The notes under the pieces are model-generated. The model did not search any database. It saw only the letters and a list, made by a program, of their open reading frames with translations, and had not been told where the DNA came from. A stretch of 62,068 bases of DNA, the filler included, from Collodictyon triciliatum (taxonomy: Eukaryota): the NCBI GenBank assembly GCA_043381765.1. It is 7 parts of 7 records of this genome, joined end to end, with 100 filler letters (N's around TTAATTAATTAA, not from the genome) between each part and the next. Parts side by side here need not be neighbours in the genome. Positions count along the whole stretch, not along the records: positions 19,572 to 29,250 come from JBHJMP010002927.1; 6 more parts are not named here. One strand, 5' to 3'. Made by a program: the position numbers and the translations under genes. Below, piece by piece: positions 19,597 through 42,200 of the stretch (position 1 is the stretch's first letter; each line of letters begins with the position of its first letter).

Positions 19597-22500
19597 GTTG
19601 AAGACATCCCAGTGTGGATAACTCGGCTTGTCAAGCTCATGGACTTACAAATCGAGCACGGAGGTGCCATCAGCGTAAAGCGGTCTCCACGAGGAATCAC
19701 AGCTCTTCCATGCTGGACAAACCAGAATAAGCTTGATGGGATGAAGAAATCTATTTCTGAATCACTCAAAGGACTGGTATACTCAATCATTCACTCCAAT
19801 TGCAACATCACAACACTCGACTTATCCATGATTGAGGACTACAAGCAATATGAGAGCATCGATATATCCAACAATAAGGTACTTAACACGTTTACGTTAT
19901 CTGGACACTTTCAAGCAGACATATTAAAACACGGTATTTATCATAGCTATCGGCATTACCAGAAGATATCTCAGGACTGACCATTCTCAAGCGATTGAGA
20001 TTATCACACAACCAGGCATGTTTATCTATTATCTATACGAAATCAAACAATTTATCAACGTATCACTATTTTTTTAGGCTTAATCCCAGTACAATTGTAC
20101 CTATCGTCGGCGCATATCAAGTAACTATATATAAATCCAAAAAACACAATAGCTATTCGAACTTCCGGTCGGCATGTCACTACTAGGCAGCCTCAGTTAT
20201 GTAGAGCTTGGAAACAACAAGGTAACAACCATTATCAACGAATATTAGAGAATATGTAAAGAATCCCCAACAACAGCGCTTTCTTACACAACTCTATTTC
20301 AGTTCACCTCGGTTCCCTCGTGCCTCAGCGCACTGACAAGTCTACAAGGCCTTCTACTCCATAGCAACCCGGTATGTTGCGTGCATGAAGAATAGCAGCA
20401 CGTTTTTTTTTCTCATGAGATGTTATATATAAACGAGAATATAATTTTTTAATTCTAATATACGTATGATAGATTGAAGACATCCCAGTGTGGATAACTC
20501 ATCTCACAAAACTGAACGACTTACAAATCGAGCACGGAGGCGTTATTAGTGCAAAGCGGTCTCCACGAGGAATCACAGCTCTTCCATGCTGGACAAACCA
20601 GAATAAGCTTGACGGAATGAATTTATCTGTAGCTATGTCTCTTATGAAGTTGCAGTTCGTCAAGGTTCAATCTAATTGTGGCCTGGAAGACCTGTCGCCT
20701 CTCATTAACAGCTGGGTCGAATATGAAGTGTTTGATCTATCGCACAATAAGGTTTTTTCTCTACGTATCTAATTTTTAGCCTTTAATTACTTTTGCATCT
20801 TTTAATCTGAATCACACCCTCATTTACAGATTTACACTATCCCGGAAAACATATCTCTGGTCAAAAGCATGAAAAAGATTGAATTGAGTTTTAATAAAGT
20901 ATGCAATATGTTTGACTTAACTCATGAGCATTTATCCTTATTTGGCATACAAACTCTTATTCCTATGTCGAAGCATTTCAACCTTTTTTGTGTAAATTAT
21001 TATAGTTGACAAGTCTACCCACTTCTTTTTCGAAGCTAACACAGCTAGAGGTTTTGGTTTTGTCTAATAACAAGGTAGTGCTATTCCCGAATTATGAATA
21101 CATTTGACTATTGAAGGAATAAAATCTGACTGGAATATATATAACTGAAATTACTGCAAATGAATTACATGGCTACATTATAATTAACAACCCATTTTGT
21201 TGTCCTGAACCACTGATCTAAACAGCCAGTTTGATTTGATGAATTTTCTGTTTGAAGATTTTATTATATATTAAAAGATTATTAGCCCTAACATCTTTAT
21301 TTATGTTACCGAAGTTATCCGGACTTCCTAACTGTATATCCAACTTACGTGCTTTATCATCCTTTTTTTTAAACGGAAACGAGGTACTGCAATAATAGTC
21401 GCTCTTAACCCTTGTTTTCACATTTTTACCAATTCGATCAAAAGAAAATGAAATTTCATGGAACAATTTTTAACCCTAGGTAGAAGATATTCCGGTATGG
21501 ATAACTCACCTCACAAAGCTCATCGATTTTCAAATCGAACATGGAGGTGTTATTAGTGCAAAGAGGTCTCCGCGAGGAATCACGGCTTTGCCATGTTGGA
21601 TAAATCCTAAGAAATTTGATGGAATGAATAAGCCAATTTCAGAGTCACTCAAAGGACTGGTATACTCGATCATTCACTCCAATCGCAACATCACAACAAT
21701 CGACTCATCTATGATTGAGGACTACAAACAGTATGAGAGTATCGATATTTCAACCAATAAGGTGATTAACTATATTCTTTTTTTAAGTAAAAAGAAAAAT
21801 AACTTTAAGCATCAAGCACTGAACAAACTATAATAAATGACTAATGATCAAAAATGTGGTTTCTTTAGCTGTCCCAAATTCCTGAAGATTTTAAAAGACT
21901 TGCCATTCTAGAACGATTGATTCTCTCAAACAATGAGGTTTTTTTTTTATTGCTGGTCACTTCTGACTATCTTATATATTATAATTGCCAAAGTCTATTG
22001 CTTACCGATATAAAATATCAGCTCCATGAACTTCCTTCGGGTATATCTCTGCTGACAAACCTGTTACATATCAACCTTGATAGCAACAAGGTAATGATAC
22101 TGAGTAGTGGATTTATTAAACGAACGAATGAGCTTTTTTTTTTTTATTATTAAAAATAAAAAAAGAAAACAATTAATACGTCATTCTTAAAGAAATCCTT
22201 TCAAATTAGTTTACCTCTGTTCCAATGTGCCTGGGGACACTAACGAATCTTCACAAGCTTTCACTTCATAATAACACGGTACTACCTGATTTAAGTCACA
22301 TGCTGCGTGTATAAATATAATGGCTTGTGTGGTTGGGAATCGATGTGTCCTCATATTCCTCCTGACCTTTTAGATTGAAGACATCCCAGTGTGGATAACT
22401 CGCCTTGTCAAGCTCATCGACTTACAAATCGAGCACGGAGGCGCCATCAGCGTAAAGCGGTCTCCACGAGGAATCACAGCTCTCCCATGCTGGACAAACC

Positions 22501-25500
22501 AGAATAAGCTTGATGGGATGACTTTGTCTGTCTCAGAGTCACTCAAAGGACTGGTATACTCAATCATTCAATCCAACCGCAACATCACAACAATCGACTT
22601 ATCCATGATTGAGGACTACAAGCAATATGAGAGCATCGATATATCCACCAACCAGGTCATTTGAATTCATTTCCATTTATAAAAAAGAAAAATTCCCAAT
22701 ATTCGTTAATCTATTTCATTAGTAATTGATTGTAACTAACCCCTCTTTAAAAAATAAAATAAACAGATATCTGCATTACCATCAAACATATCAAGCTTGA
22801 CGAACCTCACATATCTCAGCATCAGCAACAACAAGGTAGATAAATATTGGAATACATATGCAGGTAATAGGATGCGTCGCACATCATAGATTATAGTGGA
22901 CTCACAAACGCATACACACTTCAGCTCGACACCTTTCCTGCAGCCATCTGCACGTTAACACTCATTGTATCACTTGATATATCCACCAACCAGGTCATTT
23001 AAAGCTCTTTTGTTTAATTTTACTCTATGAAAAAAAAATACAACAAAATTCCTGATGCATAATTATACTCAACGGGTGCTAACACATAAAAAATTGTAAA
23101 TATTAATCAATCTAGATATCTGGTCTACCTCAAGAAGTTTCAACGCTGACAAATCTGACCAAACTTAACATTAGTGGCAATGAGGTTAAAGATAGAAACT
23201 AAAGGAGAGTCAATTTACATGATAAATCAGGGATATTTACTTATAAAAATCATAGTTTAAGTTTGTGCCTGAGGTTATTTGTCGGTTTAAGGGATTGAAG
23301 GCTCTTAACCTCTCAAACAACCAGGTTTTTTTTATTCATGTCACTCACCTGATAACTATTAACACGTTTGATTGATTAATTTCAAAGACTACGCCATTAA
23401 AGCGATATGATTTATCGCCGATTGAACTATTATCTACTTATTACTTATGATTATGGGCGCATGTGCTTCATGACTTTTTGTGTCAGATTACTTATTATTC
23501 AGAATGGTTCGAGTGCATGACTTCTCTGGAAGAGTTAGGAATGTCTGGGTGCCGGGTTGGTTTTTTTCTTCCTTTTAATTTGTGTGAGATGATGGATATT
23601 TTGGCTTTGGTTCGCTAGATGCCGGGTGAGTTATATTTTCAGGGTCAATATCTTTGAATGGAAATTAAAATCAAATTATATTGCTAAAATGACAACCCGA
23701 CAAATAGTTTACCAGTGTACCATACGTTATCGCCAAGCTGGAATGTCTCCAGCGTCTGGATATGTCAAACAATCAGGTTCTTATTTGTCTTTTTTTTTTT
23801 TAAAAAAAAAAAAGAAAACTAAATATTTCAATCTGGCGATTCAATTTATCCAATCAAAATTTTATTGTCGTATAGATAGAGAAACTGCCATTATTTCTGG
23901 GAGCAATCAAAGGCCTCAGAAGTGGACTGATAATAGTTGGAAATCCAACCAAAAATATACCCGAAAACATTATTCAACAGAGCTCTGAAGCAGTCCACGA
24001 TTATTTAGCCGCCTCGATAGATGGCACATCGAAATGGTCTAAAGGAAGACTACTGTTGCTTGGGGAGGGTGAGACAGGAAAAACAACCCTTACAAAGTCT
24101 CTTAGACAATCATCTTCTCAATTTCAGTCAACAATTGACGAAAAACGACAAAGAACTGATGGTATTGAACAAGTTGAGCTTAACGTCCATGACCTTGAAC
24201 TTCATGAAAGAGAAGCTCCAATCTCTGTTCAGGTTTGGGACTTCGGTGGTCAGGAGGAATTTCAAGTAACACATCCATTCTTCTTATCATTCGGTGCGCT
24301 TGTTCTGATTCTCTACAGACTCGACCGAGGAAAGGACAAGAACAACCTCAGAAGATGGCTAAAAATGCTGGATGATTTTGCTCCTGGATCCAAGATTATA
24401 CTTATCGGAACCCATCTCGATGAAGAAGTAATCAAATGTAGGCAAGAGATGGAGAAGGAAATTAAGGACATAAAAGAAAGGCATGTTCGTCACACATTCA
24501 TCGAAACAGACCTCATGGTGAGCAACAAGGATGGAACAAGTATTCTTGAATTGAAAAAAACCATTTATCAAGGGATGATGCAACTAGACATTCTGAATAA
24601 GGAAGTTCCAAAAGTATATATTGGGTTGAAAGATTACATAGAGTCTAAATCACACCGTATGAAATATGAAAACATCACCGATATATACCATTATGCTGAA
24701 AAGCAACTAAAAATAGATCAGAACCAATGCGAAAGCGCCCTTCAATTTTTACACGACCTCGGATCGATTGTGTGGTACTCTTCACTGAAAAACTCCAAGG
24801 GCGTCGTATTCTTAGACCCCGTTTTTCTCATCAATATTTTCCGTTGTGTCTTTAGTTTCAAAGGCATTGGAAAGAATACGAACGGGATAGTCATTATTGA
24901 AAAGTTGAAAAATAAAATAACATCAGAACTTCAAACCAAATTGGATGATGCGTTTTTAGGCACAATAATTGATATTTTTGATCACTTTGGCCTAGGGATA
25001 CAATACAACAAAGAGTGTATTGTGTTTCCTTCACTTATGGAGAAATGCAAAAATGTTACTGTGCTTTGGAGTGAAAATGCAGAGCCTCATTGCACATCTG
25101 AAAATCATGTCGAAATGAAAGCCGATAGTGAAATTCAGCTTTCAGATAAAAGCAGTGTAATCACACAAGCCCTTCGCCTCACAAAAGGAGCACCCATGGA
25201 TGTTCAATACGAGGATGTCTTTTTTAAGGATGCTGCTCTCATACATGTTCGAGCATCGCCAAACCAAAGGCCGAGTGAATTTCAATTGTCTCACGGTGAA
25301 GATTTTATTGTTTTTATACGCATGTATAGTAATGTCATTTCTGTTAAAATCAGGAAGTATGTTACTCGCTCTCATGACATCGATGAATCTGTATCTACTT
25401 TCGATCTACTTGATTTCTTTATTCAAAAGATATCGTCTCTCAGAGCTAACTTCATTCGCTCATGTGTATTTGAATGTCCAATATGTCGAGTGGAAGGACT

Positions 25501-28390
25501 GGTAAGTCGTGTAGAAACCCAAACGAAGCTGAATGAATCAGATAATGTGAAATGTGAAAAAGGGCATCTGCCTTGCCCAGACGCCATTAGACGGGGACGC
25601 GTCTTTATGGAGCAAGGTAGGGTCTCTAATTGAGCATTTAACATCCATGTCATCGTAAAATATCTTTTCTTGATTTATTTTTTCTCATATTTTGATCATA
25701 TGAAGGATCTGAACAATAAATCCAATAATTAAGGTTCATCAAAATATAGGTTATGAATTACCTAATAAGAAGAAAAAACCCCCAAGAGAAAAAAATGAGA
25801 GTAGAGTTGAAATCATCTCCATTGACCGTGAGCTGAATCATATATGGATTGAATGTCAGATTGAATTACTCGAACACATCGGACAAGGGTCTTTTGGACG
25901 TGTATATTTAGCAAAATATGCTAAAAAGAGAGCCGTTGTTAAGATACAAACCGTCGCTGAGAATGAAAAATACGATTTGAATGAAGTTGTTCAATCTCTT
26001 ATTTACGAAAGCCATTATCTGTATGAATGCCGAGAATGTAAGCATATAGCGAGGTTATTTGGTGTTTACCGTAAGGACGATGAATTCTACATGATTATGG
26101 AAAATGCGGGCATTTCACTGAAAAACTTGTTGGAAAGACAGAACATATGGCTTCACGTTGATCAAATCGCAAGCTACTCAAAACAAATATGCCAGGGACT
26201 AATTTTCATGCATTCAAAGAACCTATATCACGAGGATTTGAAGGCGGATAATGTTGCTGTTATCGATGAAGTTGTAAAAATAATTGATTTTGGCATTGTC
26301 AGTCGCCGCAGTCCACAAAAAGTCGGTTCCAGCCTACCCTCTCGATTCGGTGAAGATAAGCACTATGGAACATGTAACTGGCAAGCACCAGAAATTCATG
26401 ATGTCGTATCTAAATCACTGTTAGAAGAGCATGATGATGAAAACGTTGGTCATCGTGGAGAATCGAGCAATGTCTATGCATTGGGGATGCTTATTTGGTT
26501 CATGTTTTCGGGTATGGAACCATTCAAAAATGAGCTGGAATCTCAAAATTTGACCATCAAAGGGTCACGACCCGTGATACCAGAAACGGTCCCACCTGAG
26601 TTCAAACACTTAATCAAAGTCTGCTGGAAACAAAACTACAAACTTCGCCCCAGCCTGAAGCGCGTTTCAAAATACTTAGACTTAATATCGACGAGCGAAA
26701 CAGATGCTCCTGTAAAAATGATGGATTTGCTTCCTTCGAAGTATTCATATCTATTGGATATGTACCTTGGTGAGTTTGTTGAGTGGCTTACGGACCACAG
26801 ATTTTCAGATTTGGCGGATAAGGTGTTCAGGCAGAATTGGGGAGAAATACGTAGTGTTGGTGAAAAATTTAAAAGAATTCACCATGAAACATTGATAGCA
26901 GCATACCACTTGAGTCCGGGTGATGTGAGTTCATTTCTAAAATTATCAGAGGAATATGGTTACGAAAACAGCTCCAGTCGGGAAAGAAAGGAAGTCAAAA
27001 AATTTACCCATTCTCAATTAATAGAACATATTAAGCTGAAATCTGACGAAAGTTCAAACAGATTGCTGGAGAAAGTTAAAACTTTAAGACTCAATGGTGA
27101 CATTATATCCAAACTCGACCAAAAATCTGTATGTGATAAACATTCTGTTTCAAAACAAGAAATACTCTTTTTTGTTCAAGTATTCAATGAAAAAATCAAA
27201 CGAGAGGAACAGACGAGACCCCTCTATTCCGTGCGAGCGAGTATTCAATATTTACCTATGGATTGTGAAATAAGTCTAGCAACTTCCCTGTGTATCACTA
27301 AAATGAAAGAATTTGAAAGGATTCCCGAGTCTATAAAGACTCTGACCCAACTGAAGCATCTCTCTTTGCACTCGAACAAGGTGATAGATTCAAATTAATG
27401 AATTCTGAATTACTTTCTGCCTTTTTAACGATGAAATATTATGCTTAATTTTTCTAGCTGGTGTCTTTTCCAGAACAATGCCTCGCCTTGACAAATTTAG
27501 AGTTCCTGGATTTATCTGATAACAAGGTTTTTAATAGACTAATCGGAATAAACATAATTGAGAACCAGGCTCCAGCTTGTCTGTCAGTATGTCATATATT
27601 AATAATAGTTAAATAAAACAATCTTACTAGATATCTTTCCTGCCTCCTGAGATATCTGTGTTAGCTAGCCTCACTCACCTGATGATTTATGGAAACTCGG
27701 TTTGTTTTCGATGCTATATCATTTTACAAATTTTATTTTATTTTAGTTTAGTTTATTTAACTATTTATTTAATCCGATAGCCGATTTATTTCATTTTATT
27801 TTGTTTATTTTTTATTTAATCTAATTGTCCATTTTTAGATATATGAAATACCCAGAGAAATATCTACACTTTCGAATTTAAGAGAACTTGACATGTTCAA
27901 CCTGCTGGAGGAGACCAGTATAAAAAGAATTCCACAAGGAATCACGAATCTCCCCTGCTGGATGCAACTTGCCACGACGATGCATAAAGGAATGACACTA
28001 TATGACCATGTACCATTTTTATAAATAGACAAATGCATGGTTGTCATTTCAAATGCATATATTGATTCATAACTGTCTTTATTTTATCTCGATTCGCTAT
28101 AGGTCGAGCCCCTTCAATCATACTCGTCCTCGATGACAGATGACCAGCAGAGCTCATCTTCATTCGACCACTTTTCGAAACCAGTAAAAGATATGGACAG
28201 CACTGAACTTTGCTCGTATCTGGAAAAAACTAAAGTCCTTGATGATTTTGCAACTATTATGCGAAGTATTAAAGCCACTGGGAAACAATTCTTGGAGTTG
28301 ACGGAAAAAGACTTAGTTTCCTTTCCATTTCAGTTAAAGGAAATTCAATCTAAGCTAATTATGAGTTTGATTGAGAAGGCCAAACGATGA
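19597..28390 (+). CDS. Roco protein: LRR array-Roc GTPase-COR-TKL-type kinase-SAM-like-LRR-SAM; 5' partial; 25 exons reconstructed
   Basis: 17 exons of 69 nt each encoding one LRR; four 279-282-nt exons; Roc GEGETGKTT, RTDGI, VWDFGGQEEF, IGTHLD; COR ALQFLHDLG, VFLDP, CPIC..CEKGH; kinase GQGSFGRV, VVK, HEDLKADN, DFG, GTCNWQAPE; C-terminal SAM-like VKDMDSTELCSYL...TGKQFLELTEKDL. Confidence 0.93.
23558..23619 (-). mobile_element. Antisense truncated LINE 3' end inserted at a Roco LRR splice donor, 8-bp TSD TGCCGGGT
   Basis: Reverse complement TCTAGCGAACCAAAGCCAAAATATCCATCATCTCACACAAATTAAAAGGAAGAAAAAAA aligns with 28971-29028; TSD at 23550-23557 and 23620-23627. Confidence 0.85.
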
Positions 28391-28481
28391 TAAATTCATC
28401 TGTTTCCTCCACTTTGATTTCTCGACCATAAGACCAAGCTTTCCATCAGCCTCTTTTACCTCGTGATTTCTCTGATAATTA

Positions 28482-29030
28482 GTTCTGGAAAAGAATAAAA
28501 CAAAACATTTCACCATTTCTTGAATGTAAAGTTGAGTATATAAAACTCCTATCTTTAGTCCTAGTGCGGCAAATGATTTTCTCGAGAGAAACTACATCAA
28601 ATCTGCATCCAAATGCAAAAACATTCTGGGCAGTGACGCGAGGCCATTTGCTATGGACTGTGTGGATAGCGCGCATATACTCACACAAAGCAAGACTCAA
28701 CAACCAGCCACCCATTCCTGATAATAGGCTGAATGACATCATACAAATCCCTTCTCTCAACAGCTTCCTTCGCCACCTGCACGTTCTCTACTACTCAGAC
28801 TCTGTGAGAAGAGACATGTGGAAAGAGACTGAGAAAGAGATTCAACCTCGCCTTGTATCTCTCGTGCAGGCGCAAGACCCAGGCTACAGGCCAAACTGCA
28901 GGATGCAATTCCTGATTACCGACTACTTCTCCGCCACCCAGCCACCAAGTAGCGTCCATGCATACAAAGGCTAGCAACCAAAGCCAACATCTCCACCATC
29001 TTGCACAAAATTGAAAGGAAGACTAAAAAG
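28482..29030 (+). mobile_element. 3' portion of non-LTR retrotransposon (L1/Tx1-like ORF2 C-terminus plus short 3' UTR)
   Basis: ORF FWKRIKQNI...FWAVTRGHLLWTVWIAR (W-x-x-W-x-x-R motif typical of L1-clade ORF2 ends) stops at 28974, followed by the ~50-nt tail found in three other TSD-flanked copies. Confidence 0.72.
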
Positions 29031-29062
29031 ATATCATGTTTCAAACTAAGAGATAAAGTAAA

Positions 29063-29250
29063 GCGGTTCTTTTTTTTTGAACGCTCCTGGTGGCTATGGT
29101 AAAAGATTCATAATCAATTCGATACTTGCAAGAGTCAGGGAATATAAACAAATTGTCGTCGGAGCGGCATCATCAGATATAGCTGTAACTATAAAGCAAG
29201 GTAGAAGAACAACTGGCTCTGTAATTAAGATTCTATTGGATATTTCAACT
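29063..29250 (+). mobile_element. Degenerate Helitron-type PIF1 helicase fragment
   Basis: FFLNAPGGYGKRFIINSILARVR...IVVGAASSDIAVTIKQGRRT resembles the Helitron motif FLDAPGGTGKTFL...VASSGIAA.LL.GGRT with disabling substitutions. Confidence 0.8.
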
Positions 29251-29350
29251 NNNNNNNNNNNNNNNNNNNNNNNNNNNNNNNNNNNNNNNNNNNNTTAATT
29301 AATTAANNNNNNNNNNNNNNNNNNNNNNNNNNNNNNNNNNNNNNNNNNNN

Positions 29351-38957: not shown

Positions 38958-39129
38958 AAGAAAGAAAGAAAAGATAAATATACAAGCAGGTAAATAGACA
39001 TGAGAAAAAAATGACAGTTGGTCAAAAGGNNNNNNNNNNNNNNNNNNNNNNNNNNNNNNNNNNNNNNNNNNNNTTAATTAATTAANNNNNNNNNNNNNNN
39101 NNNNNNNNNNNNNNNNNNNNNNNNNNNNN

Positions 39130-39212: not shown

Positions 39213-42200
39213 TACGATGAGTGGTTTGTCAGAATGGACTTGACCCATATGTTAAACTTGTAAGTCATGGTATGATTCATTTGTTGCATATTGCTGAGAG
39301 CGGCGATCAAAGGTGGAATGCAGTACACAGGCAGTGCCTTCACAGTCCCTTCGATCGAGGAATCGGGTACTTGGGCAATGGATTTCTCTAGTAGCATCTT
39401 TGTAGCATGTCAATGACATAGCAGTTTGTTTGTTTGTTTGTTTTTAAAAAAAAAGAGGGATACCATGAAAAAAAAAAGACAGTTTTTTGTGGAGGATGGC
39501 GGCCTGCCAAAGATTGGAAATATACACGGTCTAATACAAGTGTAATGCAGGAACCTTGTTTTTGGATTGGACTGCAGCTGCGATGATGTTACAAGCCGTC
39601 GAATCCACTTGGATGAAGGCTTCTGCTTCAGATGTGAGATTTGTGTCTTGCAAAACAATTTGTTGACCAAAAGACATCGATTCCTTCTGCGTTTCCATTG
39701 CTTGGGGTTCCATCGTCATCGTATCGATATCCTCGTTGCCAACAACCATCTAGTTTTATAACAAATTCATTAGTCATGTGATATCAGCGAAGCATAGTGC
39801 TATACAATTATCAACACTCACGAATTCTTTTTTTAAAAAAACCTCACATGTTTTTGGGATGAGAGAACCTTCCCAGTATCCTTCACTTGTCCAAATTCCT
39901 GTACAGTTTAGTGTAAATATATTTATCTAATCTAATCATTTCTTCCTTTTTTTTCATTTTAGAAAAAAAAATAACGATGCAAACTAAATATAGGAATATT
40001 TGGGATATCTAAGGTTTTAATTGAGTTTCAGAATTACTTTGACTTTTTCCTTTTTGGCTACAAGACTTATGTCTTTGACATGAAGTTGGATTCTGGATAT
40101 GTATTTTTCACCGTCCATAATATTCTGTGTCGTATCAAAGTGTTGACATTTTGAATTTCTTTTTTTTTTTAAAAAAAAAGAAAAACATATTTCAGAAAGC
40201 AACATGCGCTATTACGGTATTATTAGCAACTGAACTAATGAAGAAATTAAAAAGACCTTTAGTGCGTATCTGGGAAGTGTAAAATCTCCATAGATAAGAC
40301 ATATTTTCGACGGATGAATTGGTTTGAAAGCAAATATGCCGATTGATTTGACTGAATCTGAATTTTCAACCTTTACTATCACTTTAGCGTATGAGGGCGT
40401 TAAATCTGAACTCCCCAGCTTGTGGTTCCAGACAAATACAACACCAAAATGAGAGAGGCCGTAAAGCGTGACCGAATTCGTCTCCTGATATGAAAATGAA
40501 ATGAAATAAATAAATGCATTAATATATAAGTGAATCTTTACCCTTAAAGTCAGGGTGGTCGTCGCTTCGCGACGTAAAGCATGTCAATTAAATTGGAACA
40601 GACTTGGTCATAATGTGCGTGCAAATAACGGGCTCCGCTATGAGACATAAAATCTAAACCACAAAGAATTTAATGACGTATAAGCAACGAAGTGTCAAAG
40701 TACTGAATACGATGATACATCCGCACACAAATGAAATGATTCATGGGTAGTATCTGATTTCAAATATTTAATACTTGCAATTGAAGCATTAGCTTTCCTG
40801 TGGCTGGGGCTGAGCGACCAGAGAGATATGATTTCGTCTCGTGTGGCTGAAAAAAGGTATTTTCCGTTTTCTGTTGTCGCCAGAGCTGTGATTTTGGAGG
40901 AATGGCCGGGTATTTTATGGAGAACCTTGCATCATTTAAGTATTAAATAAATCAATTTAGTGCCTCTCTGGGTCGAATGCACTTAAACAAAAAGGAAAAA
41001 AAAGCATATTTTCCTGATATTTTTGATACCAACCTTTCTTGAAACGATATCGTAAATTCGAATAGACGAGTCGGCCACTATCAGTTGTGAGTCGTTAGAC
41101 GATAGTAAAATCCTGCTTACAGGGGTTTGTTCTTGGAAAGTACTGGTTGACAGAGGTATTTAATTAATTTTTTTCATAAAATAGGAGGCGTAGTTGTGAA
41201 TATGTAAGAACAAGTCAAAGCTTTTTTTTTTTTTTTGGAGATGCAAAAAAAAATTTTTCTAAAAGACTTAACATATCTGAGAAATTAAACATTAAAACAT
41301 TGAAAACATTTATTTGCTTCTTTATGAGCATGTAACCAACTGAGCAATTTGGCCATTCAGTAGATTCCATTGGATGATAGTTCCATCCATTGAAGAGGTG
41401 AACAAAAACTGCTTCGAGCGAGAGAATACGATGTCGGTTACCCTGTGGTGGATGTCAAGTGCTTTAGTTCTCTCAATTTGCAGATGGGAAAAACTCAATC
41501 TTGAGACATTTACAAATAGTAAAGAGAAAAAAAAAAGTAAATAAAGAGAACATGATTGATATGAAACCTGCATATTCGAAAATATCAAAGAAATGAGGAG
41601 ATAAAAACATCTGGTCTCAAAGGCATAGTATTTCAACAGGGACACGGGTCTCAAATTCGAGTGAGAATAGCAAGAAAGGGAAGGAGGAAACCCGAGGCTG
41701 ACTTTTTCGTGTGCCCTTTCATCTTTGACCCGAGAGACTGTTTGAACGAGCCGGTGGAGAAGTCGTAGAGAACCACGTTTCCATGGTAGGCACCGGCGGC
41801 AATCAAGGGCTGATTCGAAGTGGCAGCAGAGCCTTCGGAGGACGCCTTGTGGGAAGTGAGGAGGGCAAGGAAGAAAGCGCGAGGCGAGTGAGTGAGTGAG
41901 TGAGTGAGTGAGTGATTCGGCCGATCAGGCTGCTGGCAGGCAAAGCGAAAGCCACGCCGCGTTACATGAGCCAAAGGGAAGAGAGAAGAACCGCATAGGC
42001 GTCGCCCCAGGCCAGGCAGGAGATGTTTCTGGTGAGATGGTGGGGATCGTCAAGGACGCGCAGGAAGGAGCACGAGTCTTTGAGAGAGTAGCAGCTGATC
42101 AGGCCGTTCGCCCCGCAGACCACGAGGGTGGACAGATCGGGGCTGAGGCAGGCCAGGGAGATGCCGGACGGTTTGATGCCGGCCACCTCAGAGGCTGCCG

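Follow-up and report, generated by a model that had tools for sequence, protein, structure and literature searches.

A 62-nt fragment of a LINE-type retroelement lies antisense within a kinase gene of Collodictyon triciliatum, at a splice donor that its insertion duplicated. The intron that received it is older than the insertion, and our verdict is that a retroelement inserted into an intron in an ordinary way and neatly duplicated the donor; a gain of an intron is unproven and unnecessary. The simplest and most likely outcome, to which we assign a probability of roughly 65% from features of the sequence, is that the enlarged intron would be spliced from the donor at 23556 to the acceptor ending at 23707 and that the protein would be unchanged.

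Anatomy of the Insertion

The window, by which we mean the whole stretch of 62,068 bases that was analyzed, is a chain of pieces of ∼9.7 kb each. Joints are at 9687–9786, 19472–19571, 29251–29350, 39030–39129, 48794–48893, and 58555–58654; each consists of 44 N, TTAATTAATTAA (an all-frame stop spacer), and another 44 N, and adjacent pieces are not necessarily neighbors in the genome. The insertion and the host gene are both wholly within the piece at 19572–29250. Long (TAA)n/(AAT)n microsatellites occur at 1236–1300 and 19375–19471, one of which extends into a piece boundary. The features at the site of insertion are as follows.

23487..23555, plus strand: LRR exon, 69 nt, phase 0, ending S-G-C-R
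23550..23557: copy 1 of the target-site duplication, TGCCGGGT, comprising the last six exon bases and the donor GT now beside the exon
23558..23619, minus strand: 3' end of a 5'-truncated, poly(A) non-LTR retroelement, 62 nt, antisense to the host gene (window self-comparison)
23620..23627: copy 2 of the target-site duplication, TGCCGGGT
23708–23776, plus strand: next LRR exon

The two copies of TGCCGGGT are a perfect 8-nt duplication and directly abut the 62-nt insert on both sides. The insertion point in the host is between positions +2 and +3 of a donor, with six exon bases and the GT copied. Along the plus strand, the exon closes with TCT GGG TGC CGG; beyond it come GTTGGT at 23556, the 62 nt, ATGCCGG, GTGAGT at 23626, and the AG at 23706–23707. 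A previous, sequence-only reading of this DNA had described a duplication lying across the exon/intron junction, with the donor GT doubled, and had taken GTGAGT as the probable original donor. The first is what we find, the second follows from the logic of the duplication, and all of the positions it gave were correct when the sequence was re-read.

Across the window, TGCCGGGT occurs twice, both times at the edges of the insert. The word alone is not rare, as 12 of 100 window-wide shuffles had at least two copies of this 8-mer; what is beyond chance is that two copies border a segment of a repeat family. The insert aligns to the opposite strand of 28971–29028 (83% over 59 nt; E 9e-10), and the family match stops 1–3 nt from the inner edges of the duplication. 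When read antisense, the insert has an A-rich terminal run, the same as in three other copies. Approximately 6 of 48 aligned positions, counted by hand, differ between the insert and the other tails, which suggests that the insertion is not brand new, though a difference in subfamily could also explain it.

Family and Identity of the Retroelement

Three other copies of the family are present in the window.

28603..29029, plus strand: longer, 5'-truncated copy of 427 nt, with the end of an ORF, a 3' UTR of ∼55 nt, and a short A tail
1070..1121, plus strand: tail-only copy, 52 nt, with a 14-nt duplication at 1056–1069 and 1122–1135
about 1593..1631, plus strand: tail-only copy, 39 nt, with an 11-nt duplication (10 of 11 identical) at 1582–1592 and 1632–1642

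The longer copy is downstream of the stop of the host gene, and the stop codon of its own ORF, at 28972–28974, is ∼55 nt ahead of the tail. The tail-only copies near 1.1 and 1.6 kb are in a different piece from the host gene; the tail match in the first covers 1070–1116, at 93.6% identity to the copy at 28.9 kb, and in the second 1594–1632. Counting the insert, the window holds three short copies, all with flanking duplications (8, 14, and 11 nt). Tail-only copies of 39–62 nt with target-site duplications are thus a recurrent product of this family, and their recurrence is a signature of abortive target-primed reverse transcription.

Public contigs extend the description of the family. The region 28588–29100 is matched by many distinct contigs in four public runs, with up to 20 at a single position in the run that we call X1. 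After 29029, other family copies in these contigs pass into poly(A). Upstream of 28603, contigs in two runs carry on with sequence unlike that of the window, which indicates that the longer copy in the window is itself 5'-truncated at 28603. A variant among the contigs, an extra G at 28975, is present in the 62-nt insert too.

Only the C-terminal end of the element ORF is present in the window, and a Pfam search with the ORF of the longer copy yielded no families. Among 1.84 billion representatives, phmmer found five relatives of this ORF at E ≤ 0.001. Of these, four were scanned with Pfam (a 52-aa relative was left out) and two have zf-RVT (PF13966), with scores of 36.4 and 27.8 bits relative to a curated cut-off of 27.5. 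In these relatives, the domain immediately precedes, on the N-terminal side, the portion aligned to the window ORF. zf-RVT is a zinc-binding module found at the C-terminus of non-LTR reverse transcriptases. Its presence in the ORF relatives makes the identity of the insert as a LINE 3' end well supported by sequence comparison and, together with the 83% match to the longer copy, upholds what the sequence-only reading had proposed. The Atlas neighbors of one ORF relative are zf-RVT clusters, which we regard as a lead only. Neither RVT_1 nor an endonuclease domain was found among the four scanned relatives, word-based protein searches for relatives of the element ORF with greater length yielded none, and Pfam detected no reverse transcriptase in nine other long ORFs of the window. 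An exact scan of metagenome contigs with 23 nt of the element had 0 matches.

Very high summed contig depth in X1 and X2 was seen elsewhere in the piece. The stretch is at 22134–22169, on a T-run/A-run inside an intron; loose contig ends of poly(T) lie before 22134 and the zone of high depth spans 22084–22354. It probably reflects low-complexity sequence or else a further short tail of a retroelement. In the self-comparison of the window, 22134–22169 had no match to the element family studied here.

Host Gene and Age of the Intron

19597..28390, plus strand: host gene, ROCO/LRRK-like kinase, 5'-incomplete in the piece, 25 exons, 2040 codons

The architecture of the predicted protein is, in order, LRR exons, Roc-COR, a kinase domain, further LRR exons, and a C-terminal exon that looks SAM-like when read by eye. 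Pfam identified Roc (6.5e-21), COR-A (1.6e-10), and Pkinase (8.3e-40) in two large exons. The combination of LRRs, a Roc GTPase, COR, and a protein kinase in a single protein places the gene among ROCO/LRRK-like kinases. Its best relatives in databases are LRR-Roc-COR proteins from eukaryotic transcriptomes, with 31–36% identity; C. triciliatum itself is absent from the transcriptome collections searched. A comparison of the Roc-COR exon to metagenome contigs produced 230 pattern stretches and 0 confirmed loci. The gene model lacks a start codon, and the contiguous piece begins at 19572. With 23555 joined to 23708, the coordinate-based chain of 25 exons is 6123 nt in length and has a single stop, which is terminal; the frame is therefore open across all 25 exons when the intron is removed from 23556 to 23707.

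The sequence-only reading had viewed the locus as a snapshot of intron gain or of turnover in splice sites. Intron gain is not needed to explain it. All 15 exons checked, from 20473 to 23776, are in phase 0 (eleven of 69 nt, one of 63 nt, and three of 279–282 nt), and the single-LRR exons of the gene share one end point within the repeat unit. This regularity of exon ends indicates that the intron following 23487–23555 pre-dates the insertion. Without the insert and one copy of the duplication, this intron is 82 nt; it is now 152 nt and within the range of 68–240 nt of introns in the gene model. No empty, pre-insertion site was found in the window or among the matches to metagenome contigs, and the window has no paralogous copy of exon 23487–23555.

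Other features of the gene were also observed. A module, in which an exon of 279–282 nt (IEDIPVWIT...) is followed by single-LRR exons, occurs four times, starting at 19597, 20473, 21480, and 22374. Within 19597–22655, a contig of X1 has a joint at which it goes back 407, as expected from internal repeats. One host intron has a GC donor (CAG|GCATGT, at 20016–20017) instead of GT. Another contig of X1 skips 22278–22372, with GT..AG ends that are exactly those of the modeled intron, and yet another, of which 10 letters do not align, begins at exon 23876. X1, a run whose kind is only guessed, thus appears to contain spliced transcripts from a close relative that is ∼98% identical in exons. A search of public sequencing runs listed six, all with small shares (0.05–0.10) and none recorded as RNA. 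Contigs of runs X1 to X4 were placed on 21000–29100 and none covers 23168–23709, a blank that is not evidence on either the junction or an empty site.

Long ORFs elsewhere in the window have weak Pfam matches, all below or near curated cut-offs.

5709–6680, minus strand: DUSP domain, weak match, 2.9e-06
41322–41924, minus strand: WD40, weak match, 6.7e-06
53355–55898, minus strand: FAM184-like coiled coil, weak match, 4.5e-04

These ORFs are probably exons of unrelated host genes in other pieces.

Splice Sites and Their Predicted Use

Donor and acceptor sites were scored with weight matrices built from the 23 other introns of the same gene, modeled by hand, and the scores are a rough guide only. 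Ranks are the number of the gene's 23 other real sites that score lower, with leave-one-out. All sites are on the plus strand.

23549: donor GTGCCG, −0.7 bits, equal to the lowest of the 23 real donors
23556..23561: donor GTTGGT, now exon-proximal, 4.5 bits, rank 4/23
23616..23618: TAG, in frame if the exon extends to the downstream donor
23617..23618: candidate acceptor AG from the truncated 5' end of the element, 5.7 bits, rank 14/23
23619..23625: hypothetical 7-nt micro-exon ATGCCGG (sequence and register test)
23626..23631: ancestral donor GTGAGT, now 70 nt into the intron, 3.9 bits, rank 4/23
23706..23707: the intron's own acceptor AG, 2.3 bits, rank 3/23

The donor GTTGGT is a composite, with GT from the duplication and TGGT from the 3' end of the element. 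It had been called the weaker of the two donors, which the scores do not bear out (4.5 vs. 3.9 bits for GTGAGT). Moreover, 7 of the 23 other donors in the host gene start with GTT, compared with 2 that start with GTG, so that GTTGGT is not a weaker donor by the gene's own standard.

We suggest the following course of events. A LINE-type element would have entered in antisense by target-primed reverse transcription at positions +2/+3 of an existing phase-0 donor. Reverse transcription would have halted after ∼62 nt, such that only 3' UTR and tail were inserted, and repair of the staggered cut would have duplicated 8 nt, namely the last six exon bases and the GT. The exon thereby still has an adjoining GT, with positions +3 to +6 (TGGT) supplied by the tail of the element, and the old donor GTGAGT lies 70 nt further in. 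Splicing from 23556 to 23707 is predicted to remove an intron of 152 nt in place of the earlier 82 nt and to leave the protein unaltered. The sequence shows the anatomy of the insertion, the family to which the insert belongs, the prior presence of the intron, and an open frame under this route; the mechanism of target-primed reverse transcription and the donor actually used by the spliceosome are what we infer, and GTGAGT, which is nearer to the acceptor, could compete with the donor at 23556.

Competition between donors bears on the first alternative, in which splicing would continue to rely mainly on GTGAGT at 23626. The exon would then be longer by 70 nt and, after 20 additional codons, be read into the TAG at 23616–23618. 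We consider this unlikely. Were it so, the allele would be hypomorphic or have recently become a pseudogene, with nonsense-mediated decay and minor use of 23556 as possible buffers. The ancestral donor is intact, the 82-nt intron behind it is unchanged, and its score is close to that of GTTGGT. Where competing 5' splice sites are about equally strong, preference often goes to the site closer to the 3' splice site. Set against this, the frame is open in the rest of the gene (2040 codons, 25 exons), and the ∼6 of 48 differences in the tail suggest an insertion that is not brand new, unless they reflect a subfamily.

In the second alternative, which was raised by the sequence-only reading, two introns rather than one would be removed. 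A 70-nt intron at 23549–23618 would be excised and the micro-exon at 23619–23625 would be joined to the next exon via GTGAGT, changing GGG to GGA. As had been claimed, this route and the single-intron route both encode S-G-C-R, which we confirmed from the sequence and with a register test. Of nine registers in which removal of 70 nt preserves the peptide, 23549–23618 is the sole one with GT..AG ends; the acceptor supplied by the element scores higher than 14 of 23 real acceptors and higher than that of the intron itself (5.7 vs. 2.3 bits), and the length of 70 nt is just over the minimum of 68 nt in this gene. The donor is the difficulty, for GTGCCG matches the worst of the 23 and is 5 bits under the donor only 7 nt downstream. 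An exon of 7 nt with a short intron on either side makes a difficult substrate for splicing, and by a rough estimate (9 × about 1/256), chance alone would produce one such register among nine in a few cases per 100. That a retroelement fragment gave rise here to an intron in the manner of introners, leaving the protein as it was, is a doubtful account of this locus, with a low probability.

That no insertion occurred, and that the 8-nt repeat and the family similarity are coincidence or local duplication, has in its favor the shuffle frequency of the 8-mer but is very improbable in view of homology to three other copies that stops at the inner boundaries of the 8-nt repeat, the A-rich tail, and the other short copies with the same architecture and their own duplications.

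Comparison with Known Systems

The insert resembles 5'-truncated LINE insertions in having an A-rich 3' tail, variable 5' truncation, duplications of 8–14 nt, many copies, and ORF relatives with zf-RVT. It is also antisense in a gene, an orientation that is typical for LINE insertions within genes, and runs collinear to the 3' terminus of a longer family member, the 427-nt copy. It differs in that it is extremely short, at 62 nt of UTR only, and in that its location at +2/+3 of a donor results in a duplication that copies a splice signal.

Antisense retroelements of the Alu type are exonized via a poly(T) tract. Here, too, a T-rich tract is followed by AGs, at 23587–23588 (2.9 bits) and 23617–23618 (5.7 bits). 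In contrast to Alu-type exonization, these are 33–70 nt from the donor of the exon, at or below the length of the shortest intron (68 nt), and a cassette exon is hardly possible. We rejected a cassette exon with either AG as acceptor and 23626 as donor, as the upstream intron would be 33 or 62 nt, which is less than 68 nt, and the frame would break.

Introners, as described in the excerpts of PMC11282704 and PMC9860276 that we used, are introns derived from transposons, in which a target-site duplication supplies a splice site; in the same excerpts, they are mostly DNA transposons with TIRs that form introns at new positions in many genes. Relative to that description, the likeness is that the element and duplication together provide a GT and an AG in a register that permits protein-neutral excision. 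The difference from introners so described is that we observed a single retroelement fragment in an already existing intron, for which separate excision is not required. The regular phase-0 boundary and GTGAGT with its 82-nt intron are still there, and the site is therefore not one at which an intron arose where none existed.

In the excerpt of PMC12403724 available to us, [D1,2] stwintrons have an outer donor that is interrupted by an internal intron between +1 and +2. The locus is similar to that description in its interrupted 5' donor and two donors in series. It differs in that the split is between +2 and +3, and the 70 nt in that register have ends of TG..GA rather than GT..AG; we rejected the stwintron reading on these grounds.

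Significance

The locus is a clean, single instance of the way in which a target-site duplication can rescue a gene when an element inserts into its splice donor: the exon end and GT are restored by the duplicated bases, and the final bases of the element complete a donor that is predicted to be usable. It illustrates, too, a way in which a new intron could in principle originate from a retroelement. If the micro-exon were in fact used, the locus would represent intron birth from a non-LTR retroelement caught in the act, through splice signals assisted by a duplication, which in the literature excerpts cited above is described mainly for introners that are DNA transposons. As judged from the sequence, this lone insertion, in a single gene and within a pre-existing intron, illustrates known principles rather than altering them.
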